Shown here piece by piece: positions 2,673 to 64,000 of a stretch of DNA of 64,000 nucleotides (its first letter is position 1; each line of letters starts with the position of its first letter). This stretch comes from a phage. The notes below the pieces were generated by a model. The model was not told the origin of the DNA, ran no database searches, and saw nothing but the letters and a program-made list of their open reading frames with translations. The DNA lies in the sequence record PZ445447.1, one strand, 5' to 3'. Both the position numbers and the translations under genes were made by a program.

Positions 2673-3267
2673 GAGGTGCATCAAGTGTGGAGAGGTGAAA
2701 AACCTCTCCGAGTTCTACAAACATCCAAAGATGTCTGACGGTCATCTTAATAAGTGCAAAGAGTGTTGCAAGAAGGCCAGCAGGGAGGCTGACCAATTTT
2801 CCCACGACTCTTCAGAAAAAGGTGTGATCCGCGTGTTGTACAAGACTCAAAAGTGCAACAGTAAGAAGAGAGGTCACCCACCTCCGACTTACACCAAAAA
2901 AGAGTTTAAGGAGTGGCTATACCTAAACGGTTACAAAGAGTTGTATGATCAATGGGTAGCCAGCGGATACGACAAAAGGAAAAAGCCTTCTTGTGACAGG
3001 ATAGATGATTTCAAAGGGTACTCTTTTGATAATATCCGTTTAACGACTTGGGGAGAAAATAAAGACAAGCAGACAGAGGATATTCTGTTACATAGAAGCA
3101 CCAGCGGTAGACGGTGCAAAAATGTAAGGAGGTTGGACATGAATGGTAACGTTCTTAAAGAATGGGTATCCCACAATTCTTGCCGAAGAGAAACAGGGAT
3201 ATGTGTTGATTACTACATTCATGAAAAAATTCCAGCTCCCGATGGATACCTCTATGAATACTTCTAA
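2644..3267 (+). CDS. zinc-ribbon protein, possibly homing-endonuclease-related DNA-binding protein
   Basis: ATG at 2644 chosen over longer track ORF; N-terminal C-x2-C...F...DG...CKEC block paralogous to N-terminus of the Endo VII-like ORF at 63303; no catalytic motif recognised. Confidence 0.4.
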
Positions 3268-3842: not shown

Positions 3843-4040
3843 ATGATTTATAGAATCCGTGTAAGAGAAGATGCACCAGGCTGTTACTTTGACTGGCGTG
3901 GGTGGTGGTTTCTCCACCCGATGGATGGACTCACAGATAGAATGCTGGATGCTGCCCTTTATACAGATACCGATATAGAATATAATCTCTATCTGAAGGA
4001 CGGTATAGATAACGGCCTATTTGAAGCAATTCCTGTGTAA
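3843..4040 (+). CDS. hypothetical protein
   Basis: ORF with AGGAGG RBS (caggaggcc) upstream. Confidence 0.45.
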   Translation: MIYRIRVREDAPGCYFDWRGWWFLHPMDGLTDRMLDAALYTDTDIEYNLYLKDGIDNGLFEAIPV

Positions 4041-4108
4041 GAAACTGTGATAGCCATGTTTTATGATCTTCCTGTAGCACCACCACCTGTTGAACCCGGA
4101 GAACTAAG

Positions 4109-4534
4109 ATGATCTATGAAATGCCAAAACTGATTCGTGATGATGCCCAAAACGCTCACACCATTATTATGGGCAAACGCATGGATATTATTTGTCATAA
4201 AGACTTCTGGGAAGGGAGTTACTTCACAGAGTATTTTGGTAAACTGGACAATGGTCTGCTGATCCAGTTCTACACCGATGCGGAAAACAACATTCACTGG
4301 GAGTTCGAAACTGAAGATATCCATAAACTTTTCACCTTCCTTGGTATTAAGGTTGAGGCCAAGTTTGAAGAAGGTGAGTGCGACGATTGTGGATTCTATG
4401 AGGTAACAGATTTCTACCTTCCAAGTGGTAAAAATCTCTACTACGAAAGCCATTTCGGCAACTCAAATATGCCACAGGGTTGGGATGAGTTTTTGGAAAT
4501 TGCAGAAGAGGAGCTGGAATACCGTGATTATTGA
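4109..4534 (+). CDS. hypothetical protein
   Basis: ORF with GGAG RBS (ccggagaac); acidic C-terminus. Confidence 0.5.
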   Translation: MIYEMPKLIRDDAQNAHTIIMGKRMDIICHKDFWEGSYFTEYFGKLDNGLLIQFYTDAENNIHWEFETEDIHKLFTFLGIKVEAKFEEGECDDCGFYEVTDFYLPSGKNLYYESHFGNSNMPQGWDEFLEIAEEELEYRDY

Positions 4535-4982
4535 TACTGTAAAGGGAGATCTAATCTCCATTTTCAAGAAAGGGTCAGGCCACATGATCCACGGTTGTAA
4601 CTGCTTTCACACAATGGGTGCAGGTATAGCGAAAGATATTGCCCGTGAGTTCCCTCAAGCACTGGCAGCCGACAAAGAGACTGCTTATGGTAATCTAGAC
4701 AAGCTGGGTATGTTTTCTTGTTGGGAGCATTTTGCCAAGGCCAGGGTCGTATATGGAATCAACCTGTATACCCAGTTCTACCCAGGGCCCAATGCTGAAT
4801 ACTTCTCAATCATGAAAGGTTTTGAGCGAGTCAACGAGGTATTCAAAGGTATGTCATTGCCGTTCTACATTCCTAAAATCGGATGCGGTATTGGAGGTCT
4901 AAAGTGGGAACATGTAGAAGATGTAATTAATCTTGCAACCACAGATATTGATGTGGTTGTAGTAGAGTACAAAAAGTGTTGA
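4521..4982 (+). CDS. macro domain protein (Poa1-like ADP-ribose processing)
   Basis: GDLIS...HMIHGCNCFHTMGAGIAKDIA matches the macro-domain N-terminal strand plus H/N-C-x-x-x-MGAGIA signature of Poa1-like macro domains; start assumed GTG 4521 overlapping the upstream stop. Confidence 0.6.
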   Translation, partial: TVIIDTVKGDLISIFKKGSGHMIHGCNCFHTMGAGIAKDIAREFPQALAADKETAYGNLDKLGMFSCWEHFAKARVVYGINLYTQFYPGPNAEYFSIMKGFERVNEVFKGMSLPFYIPKIGCGIGGLKWEHVEDVINLATTDIDVVVVEYKKC

Positions 4983-5233
4983 CGACCATCTTCTGAGGTG
5001 ATATAGTTTCCACAACAACTAAGAGAGGAGAGCACTGTGGAGACTAAAATCTTAATTCTTGCTGTGGTAGATACAACCGAAGGAGCTATATTCGAATCTG
5101 CAGGAGGGTATTTCTACCTACCATACGGAAAAAGAACTTCCGAGCCAAGTAAAGATTCAATCCTCAAAGTGTTCCCGTGTGCTTTCTGGCTGGAGATTTT
5201 GGTATAAGATTGCAGATGATTTGGGAGAGAATT

Positions 5234-16746: not shown

Positions 16747-16957
16747 TCCTTATTAACTAGAAAACAGGGCTTGCAATGGTCCTGTTTTTTGTTATACTTA
16801 TTACACGGCAGGCACCTGGCGACGGGGGGAGACAATCACCGGGCCTGCCTGTCATATAAGAACTATAAAAACCGTTGACATCTGCCAGGTGGTGGGGTAA
16901 CATTTATCTTGAAGGGGCAAAAGTGCCCACACAACAACCAGAAGAGAGGAAAACATT

Positions 16958-17230
16958 ATGTCAAGCTGGATTAATCAAGAAGTCGAATCACGTTTTAATG
17001 CTATTTGGGATCTCATCGAAAAAGAGGACGGAACATCAAGCCCTTATCTCAATAATCTTGAATTCCATTTCGTGGAAGCGATGAACGCAGAACATGATCA
17101 CGAAGGTGGTGCGGATGAGTTCGCTAAAGGGTATGGCTTCAACAATGCCAACGAAATGATCGAGGCGGTTGTACTCCAGGCTGAGGAAGATTATCAATTA
17201 AAAACGCTTGAATTCTGCCGCCGTAAGTAA
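16958..17230 (+). CDS. acidic hypothetical protein
   Basis: ORF with gaagagaggaaaacatt RBS; preceded by TTGACA (16877) and hairpins. Confidence 0.55.
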   Translation: MSSWINQEVESRFNAIWDLIEKEDGTSSPYLNNLEFHFVEAMNAEHDHEGGADEFAKGYGFNNANEMIEAVVLQAEEDYQLKTLEFCRRK

Positions 17231-17290
17231 TAAGATAATGACACGGGCCAAAAGGCCCACTAATCAGAACCACACAAAGAGAGAAAGAAA

Positions 17291-17509
17291 ATGACAACCC
17301 GTAAAATTAAAGTTGTTTGCATTGAATCGACTGGGGGCGCTTTTGTAGTTGGTCAGGAATATAATGCGGTTTTAATGGGTACGGATTGGAAGGTTAAAGG
17401 CCTTAATGGTTACGAGTACGGCACTACTTGCGGCTTGCGTGGTCGAATCGGATACGTGAGTTTAGACAACAAAGAAAAATTTGTTTTCGACACCGTTGTG
17501 AGTAAATAG
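17291..17509 (+). CDS. hypothetical protein
   Basis: ORF with aaagagagaaagaaa RBS. Confidence 0.55.
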   Translation: MTTRKIKVVCIESTGGAFVVGQEYNAVLMGTDWKVKGLNGYEYGTTCGLRGRIGYVSLDNKEKFVFDTVVSK

Positions 17510-17587
17510 CATGAATTGCTAAAGACTGATCTGCGAACTGCTGTATTATCAACTAATCAAAACGAACCGCATAAAGAGGAAAACATC

Positions 17588-17851
17588 ATGAAACGTCTGG
17601 ATCAGCTTAAATTAGTTCAGTACATGGCCTACAGAATTCTTGAAGTCCAAAAAGGTAGCAAAAAAGAGGTTTGCGAGAAAGCTTATAAGATCTTTACTCG
17701 CAAAAAAGATGACTGGATGCTACGCCAGACCAAAAAATCCGATATCCTGGGGTACCTGGAAGAAGAGATCCGGCTTGAAGAACAAGAAGAGATCCGCCGC
17801 AGTGAGGCAGATTATCAGGCAGCTTGGGAAAACTGGATGAGCAACAAATAA
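17588..17851 (+). CDS. hypothetical protein
   Basis: ATG 17588 after cataaagaggaaaacatc RBS. Confidence 0.5.
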   Translation: MKRLDQLKLVQYMAYRILEVQKGSKKEVCEKAYKIFTRKKDDWMLRQTKKSDILGYLEEEIRLEEQEEIRRSEADYQAAWENWMSNK

Positions 17852-17995
17852 TACAACAAGTTACGGTCAGGGGGGTAATAAAGCCCCTTGATCACATAAA
17901 AATTATGCTATCCCTGGTTGACAGGGATCGGCAGTTTTGCTATATTCTTTTTTGAAGGGGAGTTGTAAGAAAATTAACTAAGAGGTAAAAACACC

Positions 17996-18415
17996 ATGAA
18001 CATTAAATCTAATAATCCGGCATATAGCTTTGATAACGCTTTTTGTCACGGTCCGGCGGCGAAAGGATTCGAAATCGATGGTAAACTAATTATTGTCAAT
18101 GTTGACGGGGAAGAGGTTGCAGTATATCCGGTGGCAGACGTTAAAAGCCGTCTACAATGCCGCATGGATGTTACCGCCTATCAGCTTGATCCGGTCCGCA
18201 TAGTTGCCCTGGTCCTGGAAGAAGAAATTAAAGCCATGCACCATAGCAACAGATTTATTGGTGACGCGCAGGATAATATGAAAGTATGCCGCCATAAAGT
18301 TAATGAAGTGCTTAAAGAGTACGGCTATAAAGATCTTATGATCAAACGCGAGGAAAAATTCCGCTACCGTAACGACCTGGCAAATCGGATTTTTGAAATA
18401 TACGAATCATTATAA
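17996..18415 (+). CDS. hypothetical protein
   Basis: 139 aa; ctaagaggtaaaaacacc RBS; promoter TTGACA (about 17920) - 17 nt - TATATT with the -35 inside hairpin ccctggTTGACAggga. Confidence 0.6.
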   Translation: MNIKSNNPAYSFDNAFCHGPAAKGFEIDGKLIIVNVDGEEVAVYPVADVKSRLQCRMDVTAYQLDPVRIVALVLEEEIKAMHHSNRFIGDAQDNMKVCRHKVNEVLKEYGYKDLMIKREEKFRYRNDLANRIFEIYESL

Positions 18416-18434
18416 TTTTTTAACTGAATTATCA

Positions 18435-18459
18435 AGGGGCTTAGGCCCCTTTCTTTTTG
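18435..18459 (+). terminator. rho-independent terminator
   Basis: hairpin aggggc-ttag-gcccct followed by ttctttttg. Confidence 0.6.
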
Positions 18460-20927
18460 TCTGCTCTTCCCCCTACCATAAACGGCCCTACCTGGCAAGT
18501 GGAATAATTGACGAGCCATCAATCCCACACACTGTACAAACATACATATAAAATAACTATTGCATAATTTTTCATTGTGTGGTAGCAGGGCCATTTTTAC
18601 ACGTTTTTCCTTCCAAAATTGCACGTAATGCAGCATTTGCACAAAATTTAACCTGATGCATATATTCAATAGCTTGTCAACAACTAAAAATCTTTATAAG
18701 TCATACACTTACATAACTACAAAAGCGTTTTCTACGTGAAAAATCGAGTATAACTATAGCCGCCAGATCTCAGAATTTACGTACGCTCGCCATTCTATAG
18801 CCTGCTAAGCATTTATTCCAACCATAGAATAACGGAATAGTCAATACCTGCATAAAATAATTATTCGTGTAAACTGCATAACATAAATCGGCCCAGGTGT
18901 CAACATTTTTCGTAAACAGTCTGGAATTGTCACGTTAGGTTACCATAAGCAGAGAAATCTTCAGTCGTCTAATGTTTACTGTACGTTACTATATTAACTG
19001 AAATCATTAGATGACTAATAGAAAGATAAGAAATAATTAACAATACAATTATTTTATCTGTAACAATAAGGCAACTATGCAAACGAATGGCATGGCGCGA
19101 CGGAGTCGCGACATAATATAAAAGCAGTAACCATCACCCCCGTGATAGTTTGTCTGCAAACTATTAATCAGATCATAGTTGCCTTGTATTTAGTTAATCA
19201 TGACATAACAAGCAAGGCAACTATAGATCTGCTAATAGTTGCCCTGCTTTTATATTATGTCATGCTAATTATAATCAGTGCGATTATTGTCATGTATAAT
19301 TATTGTCATGCAAACGAATGGCATGGCTGATTATCGGTGTGTAAACAGTCAATCATGTAAATGGTTAGCATGTGAACAATCAGGAATGTAAACAATCCAG
19401 TGTGTAAACTAATAGGTGTGTAAAAGTGTCATGTTGTGTCAGTTAGGTCACATTATGTCAGACAAGTTTTTCTCCTCTTTGTCAAGTGCTGCATGAAAAA
19501 TTTACAAGCTTGTATGGTAGCATTTTTGCGGCCCTGTTTACATTCAGGAGTGTATGTATAATCCTTGGTGTGTGGGCGTTTAGACGTCTGGACGGTAAGA
19601 AGTCTGCAGGTTAATATCTAATCTATCGGCTGCTAACTATATCCCACACAAATAGTAAGAAATATAATTGTTATGTGCGTAAACAGTAACCCATGTTATC
19701 AATCCCTGTATGTATCGCCAGTGGTGCGCATAATGGGTATTATGTTAAATTGCCCGTAATGATAAAGGTTCTCACAATGATAGGTATTCTCATTCACCCT
19801 CACAAAATAGATTGCAAATGTTGTGCCACTGTGTGAACGGCCTCACCTATTAATTTGCCTCACTGCCTCGATATTTGAGAATTATTATAAGAATGAGAAG
19901 TATTCCCATTTCGTCCGCCTGGCAGCACTCCAGTCGCTACGGCTCATGACAGGGCAGCACTCCTGTAGGTCAGGTCAAAATCGTGGTAGAATTGGGCCTG
20001 TTCAGATATTTCTGGCTGACTCTTCAGGTCTGTGTGGGAAAAGCCAACCTCTCCGGCGGGGCAGGGGGTCATGACGGGAAAATTGCAGGTCAATTAAAAA
20101 ATTTACGTGGTGTATGAAGCGCTCTTCAGGTAAGGCAGGTATTAGAGGATGAAACCCTCTTCAGGCAATGATATTTGTGGGTGTGATATTTGCTGGAAAG
20201 CCAGATATGACGGGACTCCCGGCGGGGATGGGGTAGTACAGACAGGGAAAATATGGGGATGTAGTTGGGTAAATTGATCAGGCAGGTAGAGTATGGATTA
20301 TGTTACAGGTATGTTAAATATGGAGGTTGAATATCTGTAAGATTTGTGTGTAAAATCAAAGACTTAAGTGGTGTTGTGGTATTTTCTATAAATAATTCAA
20401 GTTTAATAGGTAATATTTGTCTCTATCCACTTTGTGTGGTAAACAGATTCAGATGAAATTGGTTTACAAGTGTATACATAATATACAAATTAAAGATACA
20501 AGAAACCCCCCTCCCCTTCGGCTACCATTCACCTTTTCCTCTGACTGGTACTTAAACACTTATTCAGACTCTTCAGGTTATCACCCATATATCATATGGC
20601 AGTGACTGGTGTCCTCCGGCCCCTCTTTCGTCACCCGTCCGCTTCGCCATGCTAATGCCATAGCCAATGGTTCGGTTGTTCACCCTGTTCACTCAGGTGT
20701 ATCTCCATACCCCTTCAAACCGAAGAGAACAGAAAACCCGAATTACTCGGTAAAAGAAAAGAGAAGAACTTAATTTTATCAAGATAGGCAAGAATGTCAA
20801 GGCATGACTGCTCACTAAACAAGCAAACAGTCATGTGTGGGAGGTAAGTGATTGTGGTTGTAGGAAATTTAGTTGAAAGATGTGTTATAGGTGCTTCCAG
20901 CACTTTAGCCGGGTAGCTAATTGTGTG
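18460..20927. repeat. repeat-rich non-coding zone between converging gene blocks
   Basis: no convincing ORF; gcaaacgaatggcatggc at 19079 and 19310; ggcaactat in direct and inverted copies around 19067-19240; tgtaaaca-type motif four times in 19340-19420; ctcttcagg four or more times in 19990-20570. Confidence 0.6.
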
Positions 20928-21143
20928 TCAGTCCAGCGGTTCATCCTCTACTTCACTGAAATCAATGTTCATGGTCTCTTCCCAACCATCGATCTCAGCA
21001 CAAGAGTGGAGTTCTTTAGGGTTTACTCCCAAAGCCTCAGCAACAGAGTCTATATTTAACACCTCTGGCAGGTATGATTCATCGAATTCAAGGTAAATCA
21101 GGCCACGAGTGTTGTCAGCTCCACCAAATATCTCTATCTTCAT
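20928..21143 (-). CDS. small acidic hypothetical protein
   Basis: 71 aa ORF, D/E-rich, starts MKIEI like neighbouring small genes. Confidence 0.5.
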   Translation of the reverse strand: MKIEIFGGADNTRGLIYLEFDESYLPEVLNIDSVAEALGVNPKELHSCAEIDGWEETMNIDFSEVEDEPLD

Positions 21144-21264
21144 AAAATCTCCTCTGGGAATGAAAGTGTGAACAGGGTTTTATACGTTCTAATGCACAGG
21201 AATTATACACGTTTGCCTCTTCAGGCCATGCTTTAGCATGAGGAACCTGTGTGGGCTCGGTGCT

Positions 21265-21504
21265 TCATAGTCTACCACCTCTGAACTCTTCGTGCTCAGG
21301 CATAATAGAGAACCAGATATCTACGATGTCCTCCCACGTCAGGTCATCAGCCTCAGGATCTATCTGGGACGAAGATGAAGAGTCCTCAGAATCTAAGTTT
21401 TCCTCTTTAACTGGCTCAGCCAAGGGACACATGGTCACTCCTTTGGATGTCTCTTCAGATGCATGTGTGTGTTGATCATGTTCCACCCGTGAGTATTCCG
21501 GCAA
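21265..21504 (-). CDS. small highly acidic hypothetical protein
   Basis: 79 aa ORF with D/E/S-rich run EENLDSEDSSSSSQIDPEADD. Confidence 0.45.
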   Translation of the reverse strand: MPEYSRVEHDQHTHASEETSKGVTMCPLAEPVKEENLDSEDSSSSSQIDPEADDLTWEDIVDIWFSIMPEHEEFRGGRL

Positions 21505-21839
21505 CAGCTGCTATGGACGTAATGATCATCAGGATCACCACCAAAACCTCTGACAATGTTTTCATTGTGTATCCCATATTCTCCAAATGATGTGTGGATA
21601 TTATCACTGGAGCGGTAATGTGTCAACAGAAACGCCGCGAGGGTTTGGTTAAAATCCGAGCGTATGGTGATTTGGGTCAAAACGGACGTGCGTTCTCGCT
21701 ACGCTCGAAAGAGAGACTTGTTTGTAGAAAGCTCTTAAACGCTCTGTAACGAGATTATCTGTCCAAGGTATGCAATCGTGCACCAGATAAAGAAAAGGAC
21801 GCCACAGAGCGTCCTAGGTGTCTTAAATTTGATATTTTG

Positions 21840-53953: not shown

Positions 53954-54667
53954 TTAAATATACTCTGTTACATCCTTGAAGCTCGAAGGCTTCATAATCT
54001 TACCTTTACTGTCAAGGAATATAATAACTTTATTACCGTTGTAGAACTCCTCTTTAGCAACGAAACCTTCGTAGCGACCACCAAAACGACGCTCAAGATC
54101 TTCAATCTCTAACTCTATGAGCAATTCAGTAGACATATCTGCACTGGCACCGTGAGAATATCGTAGATGGTTGATCCGTGCAAACTTGCTGTCATTAGAT
54201 TTGAGAACCTTCCGCATCATCCCACACACATCGCCGCGAAGCTGGAACAGCAAAGCTGTTGACAACTCCGCTAAGCGGTAAGCTGACGCTCTTTGCTTGG
54301 ATGTGTTTTTCGCAGCGATCAGTGTATCATAGAACTCACCGATCTTGAACTTAAGACCTCGTGGATTATCAAACAGGTTTGACCACTTTTCGTGATTATC
54401 ATTAACAAGATAAGCGGCATAACTTGTGACAACGTGAAGATCGCAGGCCTCTTTTAGCAGGTGATCTCCACCATCACCTTTCTCCAGCTCTTCCAAAACC
54501 TCATTGAACTCTTCCTCAATGAAGCTAAGCTGTAATTCGAATGGTGTGTATGATTTTTTCACTTTAGCTGCCACACGGTTCCAGTTTTCCACCCAGTTGG
54601 CAGACCAAAGGTAGTTTTCAGGCTGAGACAGTTTTTCCAGGTTGTCGATCAGTTTAGTATTCAGCAT
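53954..54667 (-). CDS. hypothetical protein, possible MazG-like NTP pyrophosphohydrolase domain
   Basis: EEEFNEVLEELEKGDGGDHLLKEACDLH loosely fits the MazG E-x2-E...E-x2-D metal-binding pattern; weak. Confidence 0.4.
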   Translation of the reverse strand: MLNTKLIDNLEKLSQPENYLWSANWVENWNRVAAKVKKSYTPFELQLSFIEEEFNEVLEELEKGDGGDHLLKEACDLHVVTSYAAYLVNDNHEKWSNLFDNPRGLKFKIGEFYDTLIAAKNTSKQRASAYRLAELSTALLFQLRGDVCGMMRKVLKSNDSKFARINHLRYSHGASADMSTELLIELEIEDLERRFGGRYEGFVAKEEFYNGNKVIIFLDSKGKIMKPSSFKDVTEYI

Positions 54668-54680
54668 TAAAGGTCTCCTT

Positions 54681-55442
54681 TTAAAGTTCCATAAAGTTTT
54701 CTACGGTCTCAATGAATGTTTTATCAGAGAAAGCGTCAACCGCCCCGTTAAACCAAACCGGGATGCCGCGATCCTCGTACTGGTAAATATCACTACGTGA
54801 AATGCCATTCTCCTCTAGATGCTGTGAGTCGTATTTGTTAACGATCAGCAGTTTGGTGCCCTTATTGCAGGCAGGGAATAGCTCCCAGTTAAAATTGATA
54901 ACTGTGTTGGAACACCCTACAAGGATAACCATATCATTGCTTGTAAGAGAAGTCAACAGGTCATACATGTCTGTATACTTCGGAGCTACTTCTCCGAAGA
55001 ACACCACATTAGGTTTAACCCAGGTATACTTTCCTGCATCTACCTCAGAGTATCCAATGTCCTTAATGACGTCACTTCCTTCATCGTCCTCATAGACTAT
55101 TTCTGGCAAATACCCGTGAACATGTAAAATATCTTCATGTTTTACACCAGCACGCTCCAGCAAATCATCTACATTGGTGGTAAGGTTGATCACACGACCA
55201 GACCAGCGGGAATACCACTCAGCGATCCGAAGATGTGCAAGGTTAGGCTCAACACCGCCTAGAGCTACACGACGTGCATTGTAAAAGTCATGCACCTTGT
55301 AGTAGTTCTTGGCAAAGGTGTGGATGTTGCACACCTCATCGATGCTGAAATTCTCCCACATTGCAGTGCTACCAGATCGGAAAGTGGGAATACCAGATTC
55401 AGCGCTCAAACCAGCACCGGAGATAATAATCAGTCGTCGCAT
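54681..55442 (-). CDS. Sir2-family NAD-dependent protein (sirtuin-like)
   Basis: NAD-binding signature ISGAGLSAESGIPTFRS, plus HG and VVFFGE; no canonical CxxC...CxxC zinc ribbon seen. Confidence 0.75.
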   Translation of the reverse strand: MRRLIIISGAGLSAESGIPTFRSGSTAMWENFSIDEVCNIHTFAKNYYKVHDFYNARRVALGGVEPNLAHLRIAEWYSRWSGRVINLTTNVDDLLERAGVKHEDILHVHGYLPEIVYEDDEGSDVIKDIGYSEVDAGKYTWVKPNVVFFGEVAPKYTDMYDLLTSLTSNDMVILVGCSNTVINFNWELFPACNKGTKLLIVNKYDSQHLEENGISRSDIYQYEDRGIPVWFNGAVDAFSDKTFIETVENFMEL

Positions 55443-55450
55443 AAGTGTCC

Positions 55451-55801
55451 TCAGTAGATGTTTTGTTTAATCTCTATTCCAAACTTTTTAAACGAGTCAG
55501 CTGCAAGCATGAATTTACGAGCCGCTGATGGGTTAGAAGTATGCACGAAAATCTTCACGTTGTCAACTACAGGGGGCTCACCAAATACAAATTTTTCCTC
55601 CAACATAGATAGGCAATCGTACCCTTCGAACAACTCTCCAAGGTCGTTGTCCATGTGCCACTCAGAAACGCGTCTGTAGAGCTTTCCCCTATCGTTAATA
55701 AAATCTATAAACTCGGAGGAATTCTTTAGCCAAATAGCGTCGGGGAGCCCATAATTTGACGGATCTCTCAAGTCATCCAGCCACACAATCAACTTCTTCA
55801 T
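55451..55801 (-). CDS. hypothetical protein
   Basis: 116 aa; coupled to the RNA ligase gene. Confidence 0.5.
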   Translation of the reverse strand: MKKLIVWLDDLRDPSNYGLPDAIWLKNSSEFIDFINDRGKLYRRVSEWHMDNDLGELFEGYDCLSMLEEKFVFGEPPVVDNVKIFVHTSNPSAARKFMLAADSFKKFGIEIKQNIY

Positions 55802-56733
55802 TGCATATAGTTCTCGTTGTGGAAATAGTAATCAAGTATCTCACGGCGTTCCTGCTCCAGGAGGCAGTTCCACACATCTTCTGTGTAATTGTTACGAATG
55901 AAGTTTACCATGCCGTAAAACTCTTCGTCAACACGTTTAAAGATATCATCATCCCAAATCTTCCAAGCTTTACCCCTCATTACGGCCTTTCGTGCCAGAT
56001 AGTATGGAGACTTGATCTTCAACTGCAGATCATAAGGGTAGTAAGGCTTACGAATCATATATCCTTCACCTCTTGTTTCTGCAGCTAACTCTTTTGCATA
56101 GCTGAACGGAATTTCACGCACAGTGTGAGGACGTTTTGCACCAAGGTATTTGGCAATCCCATCTAAAGCGGCTTCTGGTAGCATTATTCCAGAATCATTA
56201 TATCTGCAACCTATCAAATATGCGCCATGGTCTTCTTGAACAATATGCGGATCTGAAGGGTGACAAATTTCAAACATGAATGTCATGTTTTCATTGCCCA
56301 TAACCTTCTTGATAAGATCTAAATTACCACATTGCTCTTGGATGGTTTCCTTTGCAAGGTTACAATATGGAGAATCAAGAGACCCGGTTGTTGAGAACAA
56401 TAGGTCACCTTTATGAGATGATACCACACCAAGGAATCCGTTCTTTTTCTCTACCGCAGTCACAAGCTTATTGTCAGGCAGGTTGGTGGAGTTTTCTCCC
56501 AAGTTAAACACTTTTGTGAAGGGCCATGCCACAACATTTCCTTCATTACCGACAACAATGCCTCGGCACTCCAGTAATCGAGGAGACAAATGCCATAAGT
56601 TGTTGTAGAATACTTTTCTGGCATATTTATAGATCTTTAACCCAAGATCTGGGTAATATCTGCTGGTTACAAGACCTTTGTCAACTAGGTCGTCTGCATT
56701 AAAATACTTCATCATACGTTCCTCATTTGTCAT
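55798..56733 (-). CDS. RNA ligase (T4 Rnl1-like)
   Basis: WHLSPRLLECRGIVV...KVFNLGEN parallels T4 Rnl1 WLLPDALECRGIMF...KFFNLNEN; motif I VEKKNGFLGV (KxNG); FMFEICHP and LKIKSPYY blocks. Confidence 0.7.
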   Translation of the reverse strand: MTNEERMMKYFNADDLVDKGLVTSRYYPDLGLKIYKYARKVFYNNLWHLSPRLLECRGIVVGNEGNVVAWPFTKVFNLGENSTNLPDNKLVTAVEKKNGFLGVVSSHKGDLLFSTTGSLDSPYCNLAKETIQEQCGNLDLIKKVMGNENMTFMFEICHPSDPHIVQEDHGAYLIGCRYNDSGIMLPEAALDGIAKYLGAKRPHTVREIPFSYAKELAAETRGEGYMIRKPYYPYDLQLKIKSPYYLARKAVMRGKAWKIWDDDIFKRVDEEFYGMVNFIRNNYTEDVWNCLLEQERREILDYYFHNENYMQ

Positions 56734-56833
56734 TTTGTCCCTTTATCCTGCCACACAAATAACCTAGTGTCAACACTTGAAATTAACAAAACAGTTAGGT
56801 ATACTATCATCGAAATTAAAACGGAGGGTTACT

Positions 56834-57244
56834 ATGTCTAAAATGCTATATATCGTGCGTGGTCTACCAGGGTCTGGCAAATCAACACTGGCAAATGCGC
56901 TATCTTTAGAAGGTCTGTATCCACATTTTGAGAACGACATGTTCTGGTACGACGATGATGGAAATTACAACTGGGATGCAAGTAAAGTAACACTTGCAGC
57001 AAAATGGTGCAAAGATAACGTAGAAGATATGATGCGTATGGGATACGACCGTATCGTGGTAAGTAATACATTTACAAAAGAAAAATATGTGCAAGAATAT
57101 ATTGACATGGCGATCAGTCATGGGTATAGTTATACCGTAATCGTGGTTGAAAACCGCCATGGTAGTAAAAGCATTCATGATGTTCCAGACAGGGTTGTGG
57201 ATCGTATGGAACGCCAGCTTAAAAACTGCATTAAACTTAAATGA
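56834..57244 (+). CDS. P-loop kinase (polynucleotide kinase-like)
   Basis: ATG 56834 after acggagggtt RBS; Walker A VRGLPGSGKSTLA; 136 aa. Confidence 0.6.
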   Translation: MSKMLYIVRGLPGSGKSTLANALSLEGLYPHFENDMFWYDDDGNYNWDASKVTLAAKWCKDNVEDMMRMGYDRIVVSNTFTKEKYVQEYIDMAISHGYSYTVIVVENRHGSKSIHDVPDRVVDRMERQLKNCIKLK

Positions 57245-57251
57245 GGAATGT

Positions 57252-57806
57252 ATGAAATACTTTGTAACAAGCGACACACACTTTCTCCACCAGCGGGTCA
57301 TGGAGTTTGACTCATGTCAAAAACACAGATCTCAGTATGATCACAATCTTGACAGTATGAATGCGGGGATCATCACCAAGTGGAACTCTGTTGTGTCACC
57401 TGCAGACACTGTGTTTCACTTAGGAGATATTGCGTGCACTAATGATAAGAATATTAACAAATTGCTCCCAGATGTTCTAAATATGTTGAACGGACATATT
57501 ATTCTTGTTCGTGGTAACCATGACACAAGGACGACTGTCAGAATTATGAAAGAGTTCGGTCATGAGGTTGTAGATTATTACGAGCTTCGCCACAACAAGA
57601 ATTTGATCTGTATGAGCCATTACCAGTTTGCAAAGTGGAACAGAAAGCCTCACGGATCAGTCCAACTGTTCGGTCATGCTCACGGAACCACACAACAGTT
57701 GTTTGGCAGACAGTTTGATGTCGGTTGGGATGTGTGGGGGAGACTCTTACCATTAGAAGAGGCATACCGTATTGCAATGAGTTTTGCTATTGACAGCGGG
57801 GAGTAA
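57252..57806 (+). CDS. calcineurin-like metallophosphoesterase
   Basis: metallophosphatase motifs SDTHF, GDIA, GNHD, GHAH; 8 nt after the kinase gene. Confidence 0.7.
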   Translation: MKYFVTSDTHFLHQRVMEFDSCQKHRSQYDHNLDSMNAGIITKWNSVVSPADTVFHLGDIACTNDKNINKLLPDVLNMLNGHIILVRGNHDTRTTVRIMKEFGHEVVDYYELRHNKNLICMSHYQFAKWNRKPHGSVQLFGHAHGTTQQLFGRQFDVGWDVWGRLLPLEEAYRIAMSFAIDSGE

Positions 57807-57853
57807 TCCCTGCTATTTTAAAGAAAATTGCCACACAAGGAGAATCAGGAGAT

Positions 57854-58204
57854 ATGAAAGATGGGGATAAGCTGCTATATCTTAAAGTCCCCCTTGAAAT
57901 ACTATCTATGTCAAAAGTTTTGAATGACACAACTGGGGAGGTTGTTGTTCTTGACTTGTATGACAAGATCGTATACTGCTACCTGCACAACTGGTATAAG
58001 CTTGGAGGAAGTTCACGCTTCACACCCAGCACAAGGAAAATTGCAGCAGATGTTGGAATAAAGAAAACAAAAGCAGCAGCGTGCGTTAAAACTTTAGAAT
58101 GTGCGGGAGTGGTTGAAATATCCACACAAGGGAGAGGTAAAAGATGCACATTTTCCAAAGTTTTGCCACCAGAAGAAGTTATTCGAATGTCAACAACTGG
58201 TTAG
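57854..58204 (+). CDS. putative helix-turn-helix DNA-binding protein
   Basis: HTH-like RKIAADVGIKKTKAAACVKTLECAGVVEI; followed by the palindromic repeat array. Confidence 0.5.
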   Translation: MKDGDKLLYLKVPLEILSMSKVLNDTTGEVVVLDLYDKIVYCYLHNWYKLGGSSRFTPSTRKIAADVGIKKTKAAACVKTLECAGVVEISTQGRGKRCTFSKVLPPEEVIRMSTTG

Positions 58205-58276
58205 ACCAGTAAAAACTTAAATATCTGTACTATAAGGATTCGTATGTTTTATGTTCGCTCTGGAACAGAGGTTAGT

Positions 58277-58361
58277 AACTGTCCGTGATACGGACACTAC
58301 TGTCCGTCACGCGGACACATCTGCCCGTAATACGGACACTAACTGTCCGTGATACGGACAC
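58277..58361. repeat. four tandem 21-bp palindromic repeats
   Basis: units taactgtccgtgatacggacac / tactgtccgtcacgcggacac / atctgcccgtaatacggacac / taactgtccgtgatacggacac, each with inverted half-sites gtccg...cggac. Confidence 0.65.
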
Positions 58362-58489
58362 ATAAAGAATATAACTAAAATAACTAAATAATAAAAAATA
58401 AAAGATCTAGTACTTATGGTACTAAGTACATATACTTAACTTATGTAGAATATACTAGATCCTAAGTACCATGTTTTAAATTTATTACT

Positions 58490-58760
58490 TACTATGGGCA
58501 GTGTCGGCCCTTCATTGGCACTCGCCTACGAGGGGCGAGATGCCGGGCCTCCTTGGTGTACACAATAACAGAAGTGCATACATGCAGGTCTGTTAACATG
58601 TGTGGGAGCGAAGCGATAGCGCAGGCCAAAGGCCGAGCACTGATGTGGACCACCGACGAAAGCTTGCCAGCGCCGTAAGGAGTCGGTTGAGAGTCTCCCG
58701 CGCGAGCTTGGATGAAGTTTATGTGTGGAAACTGACAAGAAGGTCCCTAAATCGCTCCAC
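58490..58760. other. GC-rich structured non-coding island (candidate ncRNA)
   Basis: GC content well above flanks, several local inverted repeats, no credible ORF. Confidence 0.3.
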
Positions 58761-61211: not shown

Positions 61212-61310
61212 GCTAGGTAAGCCCTTTGGCAAGGGCGAGGATTTTTAATCCTGAAAATAGACGAGGTAGTCGTTGAATACATAGGTGGTTCGATTCCATC
61301 ACCTAGCACC
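61212..61310 (+). tRNA. atypical tRNA-like gene (anticodon ambiguous, TTT if 7-nt loop)
   Basis: acceptor gctaggt/acctagc, D-arm gccc-tttggcaa-gggc and T-arm ggtgg-ttcgatt-ccatc are canonical, but anticodon stem is imperfect and 29 nt lie between anticodon arm and T-arm; 99 nt total. Confidence 0.4.
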
Positions 61311-61958: not shown

Positions 61959-61976
61959 CGTTTCTGGAGCCTTAAA

Positions 61977-62375
61977 ATGATTTCAGTTTTAACATGGCTG
62001 AGCAGGTATAAAGGGATCATAAAAGGTTTAGTTTTTGCAGCTGCGATAGGTACAGCTTATCTTGGGGCCGTGTATTGGTTTAACTCTAAGCTTAATGATG
62101 CCTACCAAGAAGGTGTGTCAGCAACAGAGTTAAAGTGGGAACGGATCCTTGATCAGCAACAAAAGCAGGCCGACAAAATTAAAATGGGCCACGCAGAGGA
62201 GGTTAAAAACCTTGAAAAATCCCTTTCTGATCTGCAGGATAAATTAAATATAGCTGAGAAGGCAGGTAAAGAAAAGCAGATTATCTACCTCCAGTCACCT
62301 GAAGGCAAGAAGTCAACACTTCCTGATCAGCTTATAGATATTTATAATGAGAGTATCAATCAGGAGGATCAATGA
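61977..62375 (+). CDS. putative i-spanin (Rz-like)
   Basis: N-terminal TM helix GIIKGLVFAAAIGTAYLGAVYWF followed by charged coiled-coil periplasmic domain; overlaps next gene by ATGA. Confidence 0.55.
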   Translation: MISVLTWLSRYKGIIKGLVFAAAIGTAYLGAVYWFNSKLNDAYQEGVSATELKWERILDQQQKQADKIKMGHAEEVKNLEKSLSDLQDKLNIAEKAGKEKQIIYLQSPEGKKSTLPDQLIDIYNESINQEDQ

Positions 62376-62659
62376 GAGTTGCTACACTGTTTATTGTGTG
62401 CTTGTTATTATGTGGGTGTGCAACCAGCGTTGAGAGAGAATACAAGATTGACCCTCCTGATGTAGGAAGGTTGATTGTTAAACCCCCGGAAGGTGCCATG
62501 AAACCACCTGCTAAAGCTATGCCTTTGAAGAAAGGTGCGCCAGATGCAGTGAATTCTGGCATTATGAGGGATAATAATCTGTCTTGTAGCAATGATAGAG
62601 CTAAATTGATCATTTTGCAAGACTATATTAGAACACTTTTTCCAAAGGAGAGAGGTTAA
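62372..62659 (+). CDS. putative o-spanin (Rz1-like lipoprotein)
   Basis: signal peptide with Cys cluster (FIVCLLLCGCATS) and proline-rich mature region (DPPDVGRLIVKPPEGAMKPPAKAMP); lipobox non-canonical. Confidence 0.5.
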   Translation: MRVATLFIVCLLLCGCATSVEREYKIDPPDVGRLIVKPPEGAMKPPAKAMPLKKGAPDAVNSGIMRDNNLSCSNDRAKLIILQDYIRTLFPKERG

Positions 62660-63087
62660 TGTCTAAGATTTACGGACCGTGTTCTGAAAAGCAGAAGATG
62701 ATCCTAGAAAACGATGCAGATATTTTGGTAATCGGCGGTGCCGCAGGGTCTGGCAAGTCGTTCCTCTTGCAATTGATGCCACTTAAAATTATTGATGACC
62801 CCCACAGCTCTGTGGTTATGTTCCGAAGAACAACCCCACAGTTGGAAGGTGAGGGTGGATTATGGCCTAAAGCAGTAGCTATTTATAGTGATCTGCCTGA
62901 AAACATTAAGCCAAAGTTTAGAGAGAAGGATCATAAGTTCATTTTTCCACGGTTTGATCCGAACACTGGCAAGTGGGATAGAAGCAAAAAGGGAGCTGTT
63001 GTAAAATACTGCCACATGGAGTATGTACAAGATAAGCTTAACCATCAGGGGCTTGAGTACACCATGGTTTGCTTCGATGAGGGTTAA
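62659..63087 (+). CDS. terminase large subunit-like P-loop ATPase, N-terminal fragment (gene interrupted)
   Basis: Walker A ILVIGGAAGSGKSF and Walker B-like MVCFDEG; the frame stops immediately after the Walker B at 142 aa. Confidence 0.5.
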   Translation: MSKIYGPCSEKQKMILENDADILVIGGAAGSGKSFLLQLMPLKIIDDPHSSVVMFRRTTPQLEGEGGLWPKAVAIYSDLPENIKPKFREKDHKFIFPRFDPNTGKWDRSKKGAVVKYCHMEYVQDKLNHQGLEYTMVCFDEG

Positions 63088-64000
63088 TTTGTAGCTCTCG
63101 TAAAACCTCCCTAATTGCGGGGAAATCTTTATTATTGACACCACCAACCTGTCATGGTAACATGACAGAGGCTTCGAAGAGAGATCGAAGGTATGGTAAC
63201 AGTGTGTTAATTTAGATAATCCGCAGCGAAGCATCCGAGAGGATGAACGTTCAACGACTAGTCGAAAGACGTAGAATCAAGCGATTCGAAACGGGAGGGT
63301 GAATGTGTAATACTAAGAAATGTATGGATTGCCAAAGAGTTCTACCTATTGATGATTTCTTTTTATCATCTAAGAGCAAGGATGGATACTCAGGTACATG
63401 CAAGGAATGCTATATGTACTACAGGAAGGGTGGATCTCGTAAAAACAAAAATATGGTTAAGAGAGATGATGCAGCATTGTTTATTCAAGACTTGCTGAAG
63501 AAAGGTGAACTTTTTGAATGCAAATCTTGTCATGAAAGTATGCTCGCTGATAGTTTTTACACAAAACGTGACTATGGTAAAGTATATCTGGTTACGAACA
63601 GGTGTAAGATGTGTGAAAAGTTTTATCAGATTGAGAAGAAATTTCACATAACAAAAGATGAATACTATCGTCTACTCTCAGATCAAGATCATAAGTGTGC
63701 CATTTGTAGAATATCCCTTGATGAGTATAGGACGCAAGGGTATAGAGATTTCTTTTGTGTTGATCATGACCATAAAACTGGTGCTGTAAGAGGGTTGCTT
63801 TGTGATAAATGCAACAGAGCTTTAGGTTTCTTCCAAGAGGATGAGGAAACTATTCTTAGAGCGGCAGAGTATTTACACATTCATAAGATATAGTCTGGTC
63901 TGCATGGAGACATGCAGCTGCCTGAAAATGGCGGGGCAAGACTAGCGACCTTGCCCGAACATAAACGACACAATTCGAATGGGAGCAGATAGACTACCTG
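63088..64000 (+). mobile_element. putative intron or homing-endonuclease insertion (runs past window end)
   Basis: structured sequence with GNRA-capped hairpins (ctgtcatg-gtaa-catgacag; ctgcatg-gaga-catgcag) flanking an Endo VII-like endonuclease ORF right after the truncated terminase-like frame; 3' boundary not in window. Confidence 0.4.
63303..63893 (+). CDS. Endo VII-like HNH homing endonuclease with N-terminal zinc-ribbon domains
   Basis: C-terminal HKCAICRISLDEY...VDHDHKTGAVRGLLCDKCNRALGFF is a textbook endonuclease VII core; N-terminal CMDCQ...DG...CKEC zinc-ribbon repeats; gggagggtga RBS. Confidence 0.7.
   Translation: MCNTKKCMDCQRVLPIDDFFLSSKSKDGYSGTCKECYMYYRKGGSRKNKNMVKRDDAALFIQDLLKKGELFECKSCHESMLADSFYTKRDYGKVYLVTNRCKMCEKFYQIEKKFHITKDEYYRLLSDQDHKCAICRISLDEYRTQGYRDFFCVDHDHKTGAVRGLLCDKCNRALGFFQEDEETILRAAEYLHIHKI

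Follow-up and report, generated by a model that had tools for sequence, protein, structure and literature searches.

Putative genome terminus with short direct terminal repeats in the gene-free zone of Escherichia phage MaxBurger

We analyzed a 64,000-nucleotide stretch of DNA (the window; record PZ445447.1) from Escherichia phage MaxBurger (Bas54), a Vequintavirus, that is, an rV5-like coliphage and a myovirus with a 136-kb genome. The repeat-rich zone in which its plus-strand and minus-strand gene blocks converge is probably (at a probability of roughly 0.8) the genome-terminus region with short direct terminal repeats, present in the record in its collapsed concatemer-junction form. The positions of the Bas54 termini are predicted from those of relatives. 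A terminus is an ordinary kind of feature, yet it is undescribed in detail for this phage group. The published accounts give only the length of the repeat, and none that we found places it in the "non-coding box" of the 2013 rV5 map. No published description of the flanking arrays, the inverted-repeat block or the conserved island was found, and no paper on the transcription, origins or function of the zone.

The gene-free zone and the terminal repeat

The last plus-strand gene ends at 18415 and the last minus-strand gene at 20928; no CDS is annotated between these positions in MaxBurger. The first-pass annotation had seen the convergence of the two blocks and no credible open reading frame (ORF) here, and our results bear out both: 18416-20927 is gene-free. 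We computed ORF intactness and nucleotide diversity (pi) across 16 genomes. Among the 19 ORFs in the zone (36-101 aa), 15 are broken in at least three of the 16 genomes; the other four are intact in at least 14 of them and have non-ATG starts, no ribosome-binding site and no excess of variation at third codon positions. In the flanking genes the codon-position signal is clear (pi about 0.02, 0.015 and 0.11 at positions 1, 2 and 3, respectively). Both tests were thus negative for hidden genes. Searches of the flanking proteins against Pfam and PHROGs gave only families of unknown function. The plus-strand block is closed by an intrinsic terminator (18434..18461, plus strand), GGGGCTTAGGCCCC followed by a T-run, whose hairpin at 18434-18451 (-12.9 kcal/mol, z -2.2) with its U-rich tail is annotated in Alma, Murica, HdK5 and Gotham. 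The setting had also been called AT-rich; the GC content is indeed lower (0.385-0.39 versus about 0.42-0.44 elsewhere), but the enrichment is only mild. No Chi sites that could protect ends were found in the zone, nor did its elements turn up again in the rest of the window. As a separate observation, 19920-20927 has no match in 5,426 E. coli genomes, so no host mimicry was seen.

In the middle of the zone lies a 459-bp direct terminal repeat (19461..19919; 93831-94289 in the numbering of the record), which starts with GACAAGTTTTTCTCC and ends with CCCATTTCGTCCGCC. Comparison with related phages, which the first-pass annotation had proposed as a check, located it by homology: EdH4, Gotham, ECP2309 and HdK5 have its counterpart (95-98% identity) as an exact 459-bp direct repeat at both ends of their records. 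In HdK5, which is 95% identical here, the identical ends map to 19461-19919 of the window, and the sequence around both repeat boundaries is the same as in the window. The segment is annotated as a repeat region in the Gotham record. Furthermore, the records of Pr121LW, EcoIv14a_Aya and ECP2303 open at 19461 and those of bov11CS3 and bov25_3 at 19919; nine records thus open at one or the other position, as fixed ends predict, and by homology with the relatives the same sequence is expected at both virion ends. The repeat is single-copy in the MaxBurger record because, we infer, the assembly collapsed both copies. Terminal repeats of 458/459 bp have been reported for the genus (PMC6563267, PMC7471380), with twofold repeat coverage and pile-ups of read starts at the boundaries for Gotham (PMC7471380); those of Gotham, HdK5 and EdH4 are the same element as that of the window, with identical boundaries. 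Of the functions that had been suggested for the zone, a packaging signal is therefore the one that gains strong support, with the repeat and both cut positions in mid-zone and arrays that abut one cut.

Two published statements count against fixed termini. The rV5 genome was called circularly permuted in 2013, from about 3.6-fold Sanger coverage obtained with clone libraries and primer walking (PMC3606486), and a 2026 paper gives a PhageTerm call of "headful, partial permutation" for another vequintavirus (PMC13211470). Exon 1 of the large terminase gene (62659-63087), the only part of it in the window, matches Pfam Terminase_6N (E 1e-5), a match that does not separate one packaging type from another. 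We also considered a 546-bp duplication in the I29 record as an assembled pair of the repeat and rejected it; its limits do not match those of the repeat and it has a palindromic junction inside, and it is thus probably an assembly artefact.

The repeat has a pi of 0.062, with a conserved core at 19724-19750. It also contains a TTGACA hexamer on the minus strand (19480-19485), 18-19 bp from the cut and conserved subfamily-wide; we rejected a sigma-70 promoter at this site, as it lacks a conserved -10 element downstream.

The terminus is conserved in other genera. A 514-bp repeat is reported for the Klebsiella phage KPP-1 (genus Mydovirus), where twofold coverage, pile-ups of read starts at the boundaries and PhageTerm assign it to the T7 type (PMC9862379). 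This repeat is homologous to that of the window (blastn E 9e-5) and is flanked, as here, by converging gene blocks in a gene-poor setting. On alignment, both of its boundaries share their columns with those of the window repeat (GCCA|GGCGGAC against GCTA|GACGGAC, and CTTGTC|TGACA against GTGTT|TAGCA). A metagenomic IMG/VR contig of 148,842 bp, which has the repeat core near both ends, ends on the same two columns. In the 12 other lineages that we tabulated (11 IMG/VR contigs and KPP-1) the core is found within an ORF-poor span of 1.2-2.4 kb, and in most of them the genes converge on it. The CCTGAAG/CTTCAGG motif is also present in the KPP-1 terminus zone, and no arrays were seen beside the equivalent KPP-1 boundary.

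If this reading is correct, virion DNA would start at 19461 and end at 19919 and would thus carry the 459 bp at both ends; the adjoining unique DNA would be 18459-19460 at the right end and 19920-20927 at the left, with the neighboring gene blocks both transcribed towards the ends. Replication would produce head-to-tail concatemers with one repeat copy per junction, at which the terminase would recognize junction sequences and make two fixed cuts, after TGTCA (19460|19461) and after CGTCCGCC (19919|19920). The repeat would be duplicated during processing, in the T7-type style of packaging. Because the non-coding flank of about 2 kb exceeds the known needs of T7-type signals, further functions probably share the zone.

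Elements on the two sides of the repeat

All of the repeats listed in the first-pass annotation are present, far above chance. A hypervariable short-repeat array extends up to the left cut (19328..19460, plus strand). It comprises six TGTRAAN units at a spacing of 15-16 bp (19340-19425) and then four (T/G)GTCA units at a spacing of about 10 bp (19427, 19437, 19446 and 19456), the last of which ends exactly at the cut (TGTCA|GACAAG). The tgtaaaca-type motifs noted previously belong to the regular six-unit part of this array, with TGTRAAYA at 19340, 19356, 19371, 19387, 19403 and 19419; in the whole window there are 17 such motifs versus 13.5 expected, so the motif itself is not enriched. Across the 16 genomes the array measures 106-219 bp with one to eight strict copies (pi 0.32), and the junction at the cut is conserved while array length and copy number vary between phages. 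By analogy, these regularly spaced repeats directly beside the cut are most likely a docking array for a recognition protein (the small terminase or an accessory factor), acting as the lambda cosB R sites or the T7 SRL/SRR arrays would. Among the proteins of the window, none was identified as a small terminase.

The unique spacer inside the putative right genome end (18459..19060) is AT-rich and weakly constrained (pi 0.093 versus 0.11-0.22 at the third codon positions of the flanking genes) and without RNA structure (fold z-scores from 0 to +2.3). It is followed by an inverted-repeat block (19061..19262), strongly conserved (pi 0.017), with four AAGGCAACTAT sites in alternating orientation and two opposed terminators: a minus-strand hairpin at 19129-19150 with its tail to 19110 (-12.5 kcal/mol), and a plus-strand hairpin at 19210-19249 with its tail to 19262 (-19.5 kcal/mol). 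The U-rich tail CTGCTTTTATATTATGTC is common to both. This block is the sole part of the zone with significant folding, at z -5 to -7.5 on both strands. The ggcaactat-type repeat, GGCAACTAT, occurs five times in the window versus 0.44 expected, with four copies at 19070-19243 in alternating orientation. At the junction, the opposed terminators would block transcription across it; the palindromic AAGGCAACTAT sites, together with the arrays, are also plausible candidates for protein-binding sites, one of the functions suggested at first. The statement that the zone is more than a simple terminator region holds in part: three terminator-like hairpins do exist, but they cover only a small fraction of it.

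The block is bracketed by two exact 20-bp direct repeats on the plus strand, ATGCAAACGAATGGCATGGC (19077-19096 and 19308-19327), 231 bp apart, close to the 230 bp first noted. The pair is kept in relatives, with a distance of 227 bp in the IMG/VR contig L010. FV3 has one copy of ATGCAAACGAATGGCATGGC and lacks the inverted-repeat block between, as repeat-mediated deletion predicts; its absence from FV3 also means that the block is dispensable.

Just outside the right cut is an indel-rich segment (19920..20075; pi 0.154, gap fraction 0.17), in which GGCAGCACTCC(A/T)GT is duplicated in MaxBurger at 19921 and 19953. Repeat comparison revealed two diverged tandem modules on the plus strand (20010..20260), each with the order CTCTTCAGG ... 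TGTGGG ... GAAAGCCA ... CCGGCGGGG(CA/AT)GGGG ... GGGAAAAT. The ctcttcagg-type repeat CTCTTCAGG is present seven times in the window versus 0.52 expected: four copies are in the zone, at 20020, 20122 and 20157 (modules) and at 20569 (in the island described below), and one is at 21217. The partial duplication that had been pointed out consists of CCGGCGGGGCAGGGG at 20053 and an 87% copy at 20219. Farther right, a stable minus-strand hairpin, CATGACTG ... CAGTCATG (20811..20843; -14.6 kcal/mol, z -3.6), lies downstream of the last minus-strand gene and may be a weak terminator of the minus-strand block.

The conserved island and alternative explanations

Just downstream of this hairpin is a near-consensus sigma-70 promoter on the minus strand (20773..20800; TTGACA, 16 nt, TGaTAAAAT), with an 11/12 match and an extended -10 TG; it equals the annotated promoter upstream of the gene for a 139-aa protein. 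Its hexamers are unchanged in all 16 genomes, and the spacer differs only in L010. The promoter points towards the left genome end, into a near-invariant non-coding island of about 270 bp (20497..20770, minus strand; C-rich on the plus strand), the pi of which (0.003-0.037) is below that of the first and second codon positions of the neighboring genes. Coding in the island is ruled out by 0/1/2-nt indels in its C-run and the lack of codon bias, and no E. coli homologue of it was found. Island and left-facing promoter would be a further functional element. Tentatively, and with more doubt than belief, we suggest that the two, at 0.6-1.3 kb from the left end, may form an end-proximal element of a new kind. 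For one, host RNA polymerase could produce an unstructured early RNA from the first DNA entering the cell and run off the end. Alternatively, they could be a DNA site through which host RNA polymerase is tied to the processing of the ends, an idea that is echoed by the conserved TTGACA (19480-19485) inside the other cut and that brings to mind RNA polymerase pausing at the concatemer junction of T7 and its role there.

A different explanation is that the zone encodes a cluster of non-coding RNAs, small or long, for example a minus-strand RNA of about 270 nt started by the promoter at 20800, together with convergent RNAs that stop at the opposed terminators (19110 and 19262). The promoter, conserved in all 16 genomes and followed by the 270 nt that vary least in the region, and the two good opposed terminator hairpins without an upstream gene, fit such a cluster. 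However, Rfam is silent on the zone at E<=1 (the tRNAs at 60.7-61.5 kb were the only hits, with the whole window searched at gathering scores), and the folding of the island is no better than shuffled on either strand (z-scores -0.44 and -0.15). A sliding fold scan of the zone (120 nt) and folding of the whole right arm gave nothing above shuffled controls except in the inverted-repeat block, where both strands score equally, as DNA palindromes do. The G-rich 19920-20300 and the C-rich 20497-20770 likewise formed no duplex beyond the level of shuffled controls, so that long-range pairing is not seen, and there is no terminator at the end of the island. The nearly invariant sequence of the island offers no covariation. 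We regard RNA genes as unlikely to account for the zone, and the suggestion of a structured small-RNA cluster gained nothing from these searches.

Still less probable is a replication origin, at which an initiator would bind the AT-rich spacer, the iteron-like arrays and the palindromic sites, and the DNA would open. Helically spaced repeats in mildly AT-rich DNA, a peak of cumulative GC skew in the zone, and one-mismatch DnaA-box-like sites at about twice the window average are in keeping with it. However, an exact DnaA box is absent from the zone, and the skew switch coincides with the change of transcription direction; the authors of the rV5 study likewise tie it to gene orientation (PMC3606486). 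Moreover, the arrays end exactly at the predicted terminase cut and their copy number varies freely, and no initiator gene adjoins the zone, the flanking proteins being of no known family. The origin proposed in the first-pass annotation thus found no specific support, although origin function could be compatible with terminus function. Finally, it is most improbable that the zone only separates and terminates convergent units, with its repeats being slippage products or decayed genes: the three terminator-like hairpins, the nearly neutral left spacer, the hypervariable arrays and the tolerated loss of the inverted-repeat block in FV3 would agree with this, but two islands (pi 0.017 and 0.003-0.037) are more conserved than the first and second codon positions of the neighbors, the terminal repeat with its boundaries and internal core is conserved across genera, and physical ends map to the zone, so that the explanation is already contradicted for 19061-19262, 19461-19919 and 20497-20800.

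Significance and comparison with known termini

A genome terminus at this position explains the "non-coding box" of rV5-type maps, drawn since 2013 without a function. Most of the approximately 120 GenBank records of the genus have an arbitrary opening point and a collapsed terminal repeat, which matters for comparative genomics, engineering and therapy with these common broad-host-range coliphages. Exact end coordinates allow designs that leave packaging intact or that yield packageable vectors. How large myoviruses with short terminal repeats recognize and cut their DNA can be approached directly through three short elements, conserved or repetitive: the array, the inverted-repeat block and the island.

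Among the phapecoctaviruses, the terminal repeat of Schickermooser is 328 bp, and the end-proximal gene for the 139-aa protein is common to both groups (89% amino-acid identity). However, their non-coding DNA is unrelated, with no DNA homology above chance in the terminus zone, and the genes beyond the 139-aa gene are co-directional instead of converging.

Phage T5 has a non-coding region rich in repeats and palindromes near its DNA end, the injection stop signal. The MaxBurger zone is likewise a gene-free, repeat- and palindrome-rich stretch near an end, with early-type neighbors transcribed towards that end. However, the repeats of T5 are 10 kb long and its DNA is transferred in two steps, whereas the MaxBurger zone has no sign of a pause in DNA entry. 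In the cos site of lambda (cosQ-cosN-cosB), repeated R sites for the small terminase adjoin the nicking site; the MaxBurger array is similar in that a short motif is repeated in helical phase up to the predicted point of cleavage. The ends of lambda DNA are cohesive and 12 nt long, in contrast to the duplicated repeat here; there is no homology, and binding to the MaxBurger array is putative.

Another parallel is the T7/T3 concatemer junction, which reportedly has a terminal repeat of 160/230 bp, flanking SRL/SRR arrays and pac signals; the left end of T7/T3 DNA is non-coding. MaxBurger differs from T7 in being a 136-kb myovirus without sequence homology, in that arrays were seen on one side only, and in that its genes run towards the ends, not away from the left end, with non-coding arms of about 1 kb each. 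Nevertheless, T7/T3 and MaxBurger are alike in an exact terminal repeat of short length and in cuts at specific sequences (predicted in MaxBurger), in imperfect short-repeat arrays that adjoin the repeat, and in several hundred gene-free base pairs inside the ends.

Predicted genome ends within the gene-free zone

The window matches Escherichia phage MaxBurger (Bas54, MZ501093.1), of the genus Vequintavirus, the rV5-like myoviruses, at 100% identity; MaxBurger record positions minus 74370 give window positions. The gene-free, repeat-rich zone between the converging gene blocks (18416-20927) is common to 122 phage records, with 86-100% identity. Several GenBank records start or stop at just two positions within it. 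The record of HdK5 has the same 459 bp at its start and end (100% identical), corresponding to 19461-19919 of the window, and the surrounding sequence is identical to that of the window. Used as a query, this segment was found at both record ends in EdH4, Gotham, ECP2309 and HdK5, and is annotated as a repeat region in Gotham; the records of Pr121LW, EcoIv14a_Aya and ECP2303 open at 19461, and those of bov11CS3 and bov25_3 at 19919. MaxBurger has one internal copy. The record ends and 459-bp repeats of the relatives thus show that the zone is the concatemer-junction view of two genome ends, comprising unique DNA inside the right end (18459-19460), the terminal repeat (19461-19919) and unique DNA inside the left end (19920-20927), with positions and architecture predicted for MaxBurger from homology and from published read-based mapping in relatives. 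A packaging signal, one of the functions that the first-pass annotation had read from the repeats, was the right choice, since both genome ends fall within the zone.

The rV5 genome was described in 2013 as circularly permuted (PMC3606486), which is at odds with the three read-based reports relied on for the ends; a 2026 PhageTerm 'headful' call for another vequintavirus is also contrary to these reports (PMC13211470). The terminal repeat of Vequintavirus is already published. New here are its location inside a non-coding box that has long been known, the finding that both boundaries are conserved throughout the subfamily, and the detailed anatomy. The 2013 study drew a grey box labelled 'non-coding' at this place, expected bidirectional terminators between genes 163 and 164 but found none, and considered that skew changes merely track the direction of transcription (PMC3606486); in the later literature we found no function assigned to the zone.

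The MaxBurger record (136,346 bp) ends at 61976/61977 and the window runs on past that end; thus, a circularised form of the sequence was the source of the window. The record opens at an arbitrary point that bears no relation to the physical ends. In phage I29 (L021, ON286975.1), an exact tandem duplication of 546 bp, palindromic at its junction (3853-4992), lies within the zone (approximately window 19703-20298); we rejected it as a terminal-repeat pair because its limits differ from those of the terminal repeat, and it is probably an assembly artefact. Nineteen GenBank MG0656xx records labelled 'Campylobacter phage' match this E. coli phage at 87-95% identity over the zone, and the single one checked, A135, is flagged UNVERIFIED and is unannotated. 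These look like mislabelled or contaminating vequintaviruses.

Anatomy and constraint

As the first-pass annotation had proposed, the plus- and minus-strand gene blocks do meet at the zone, and the MaxBurger annotation has no gene between 18415 and 20928. A good terminator closes the plus-strand block (18434-18451, plus strand). Small ORFs in the zone are annotated inconsistently among relatives. Of 19 ORFs in the zone (36-101 aa), 15 are broken in at least three of 16 aligned vequintavirus genomes; the other four, intact in at least 14, have non-ATG starts and neither a ribosome-binding site nor a third-position excess, whereas in the two genes that flank the zone diversity is about 0.02, 0.015 and 0.11 at codon positions 1, 2 and 3. 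No known family was found for the flanking proteins.

Every repeat listed in that annotation is present, and the AT-richness it noted is real but mild. Two exact copies of the 20-mer ATGCAAACGAATGGCATGGC lie 231 bp from each other (19077-19096 and 19308-19327); GGCAACTAT has five copies against 0.44 expected, four of them at 19070-19243 in alternating orientation; CTCTTCAGG has seven against 0.52; and the second copy of CCGGCGGGGCAGGGG has 87% identity. The TGTAAACA-type motif forms a regular local array with no window-wide enrichment. No further copies of zone elements were found elsewhere in the window. A separate heptamer, TGTGTGG/CCACACA, has 28 copies in the window (8.7 expected), clustered at 16927-21597 and 54222-58728. 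It lies upstream of several genes, with a terminator hairpin on one side and the ribosome-binding site on the other (e.g. 12079, 16927, 17270, 57831 and 58122), forms inverted pairs inside the zone (18525/18576 and 19569/19644), and may be a 5'-UTR, processing or regulator-binding signal.

Diversity of zone segments among the 16 genomes can be compared with third codon positions of the flanking genes (0.11-0.22). The left spacer (18459-19060; 0.093) is near neutral and has no RNA structure. The inverted-repeat block (19061-19262; 0.017) is strongly constrained; it contains four AAGGCAACTAT sites and a pair of opposed terminator hairpins (-19.5 and -12.5 kcal/mol) sharing a U-rich tail. No other part of the zone folds significantly, and the block scores equally on both strands. 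In phage FV3 the block is missing and the 20-mer that flanks it is present once, the state expected after recombination between the two 20-mers; thus, the block is dispensable. The array that follows (19263-19450) is hypervariable (0.32). From the second 20-mer to the cut it measures 106-219 bp in the 16 genomes, with one to eight strict GTRAAYA units at 15-16-bp spacing and then RTGTCA units at about 10-bp spacing; the window has six units of the former type and four of the latter, ending at the left cut between TGTCA and GACAAG (19460/19461). Diversity is 0.062 in the terminal repeat and 0.154 in the indel-rich segment just beyond the right cut (19932-20075). Two diverged tandem modules (20010-20260) carry CTCTTCAGG and CCGGCGGGG motifs. 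The island at 20497-20770 is near-invariant (0.003-0.037), below first and second codon positions nearby; a C-run of varying length and a lack of codon bias exclude a coding function. On the minus strand, a near-consensus sigma-70 promoter whose -10 element is extended (20800 to 20773) is oriented so that transcription would enter the island and proceed towards the left end, and both hexamers are unchanged in all 16 genomes.

Other functions and a possible mechanism

A cluster of small RNA genes, also suggested from the repeats, found no support: Rfam gave no match in the zone, and shuffled sequence folds as well as the island, as the whole right arm and as a possible pairing of G-rich with C-rich parts. 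Nor was a replication origin supported, as the zone has no exact DnaA box; it also contains no Chi site, and 19920-20927 has no match in 5,426 E. coli genomes. However, about 2 kb of flanking non-coding DNA exceeds the needs of known packaging signals, and thus the zone may, besides the genome ends, accommodate an origin or a transcript.

By established knowledge of T7-type packaging, concatemers would carry one repeat per junction, terminase would cut at two fixed positions, and the repeat would be duplicated during processing. The phased repeats that run up to the left cut may be a docking array for the recognition protein; the lambda cosB sites and the T7 SRL/SRR arrays would be analogues. 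The opposed terminators might keep convergent transcription from crossing the junction, and would supply the bidirectional terminator 'missing' from rV5 (PMC3606486).

Elsewhere in the window, 62659-63893 contains large terminase exon 1 (Walker A motif, Pfam Terminase_6N) and then an endonuclease VII ORF, an order consistent with the intron-split terminase gene that rV5 is reported to have. Immediately upstream, two small ORFs (61977-62375 and 62372-62659) resemble a spanin pair by eye. Within the tRNA cluster, ARAGORN called a tRNA of 99 nt at 61212-61310, its type undetermined and its anticodon four bases long (atcc), which scores just 35.5 bits with the Rfam tRNA model.

Comparison with other genera

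The 139-aa gene adjoining the zone (17996-18415, phrog_12277) is accessory, missing in 6 of 16 vequintaviruses. In the phapecoctaviruses, another subfamily, it is 89-90% identical in amino acids and is also the last gene before the terminus zone. There, a terminator and about 1.5 kb of non-coding DNA likewise come after the end-proximal gene (89% identity); however, this DNA is unrelated in sequence to that of the window, and the genes past it run in the same direction. The gene suggests that end-proximal DNA was exchanged between the two groups. In phAPEC8 (L023), the annotated 20-nt 'PHIRE promoters' GTAGGGCGGCAATGGTGCCG (498-517, 879-898, 1729-1748 and 3144-3163) are conserved stem-loop sequences, two of them directly downstream of promoter-like sequences, and may be 5'-UTR hairpins rather than promoters.

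Klebsiella phage KPP-1 (Mydovirus, same subfamily) has a 514-bp repeat, which was located from twofold coverage and with PhageTerm and assigned to the T7 type (PMC9862379). As in the window, few genes surround this repeat, plus- and minus-strand blocks meet at it, and CTTCAGG-type motifs recur there. The two repeats show weak but collinear homology in reverse orientation (E 9e-5), and both published KPP-1 boundaries share alignment columns with those of the window (slash, boundary: GCCA/GGCGGAC against GCTA/GACGGAC, and CTTGTC/TGACA against GTGTT/TAGCA). A 27-nt core conserved between the repeats (19724-19750) retrieved 21 IMG/VR loci, mostly on contigs of 120-153 kb. When aligned, these loci again show the two boundary motifs and, 18-19 bp inside one end, a TTGACA hexamer. 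A 148,842-bp contig has the core near both ends and ends exactly on the two boundary columns. A table of 12 further lineages (11 IMG/VR contigs and KPP-1) places the core within a 1.2-2.4-kb span without long ORFs, and in most of these lineages genes converge on it.
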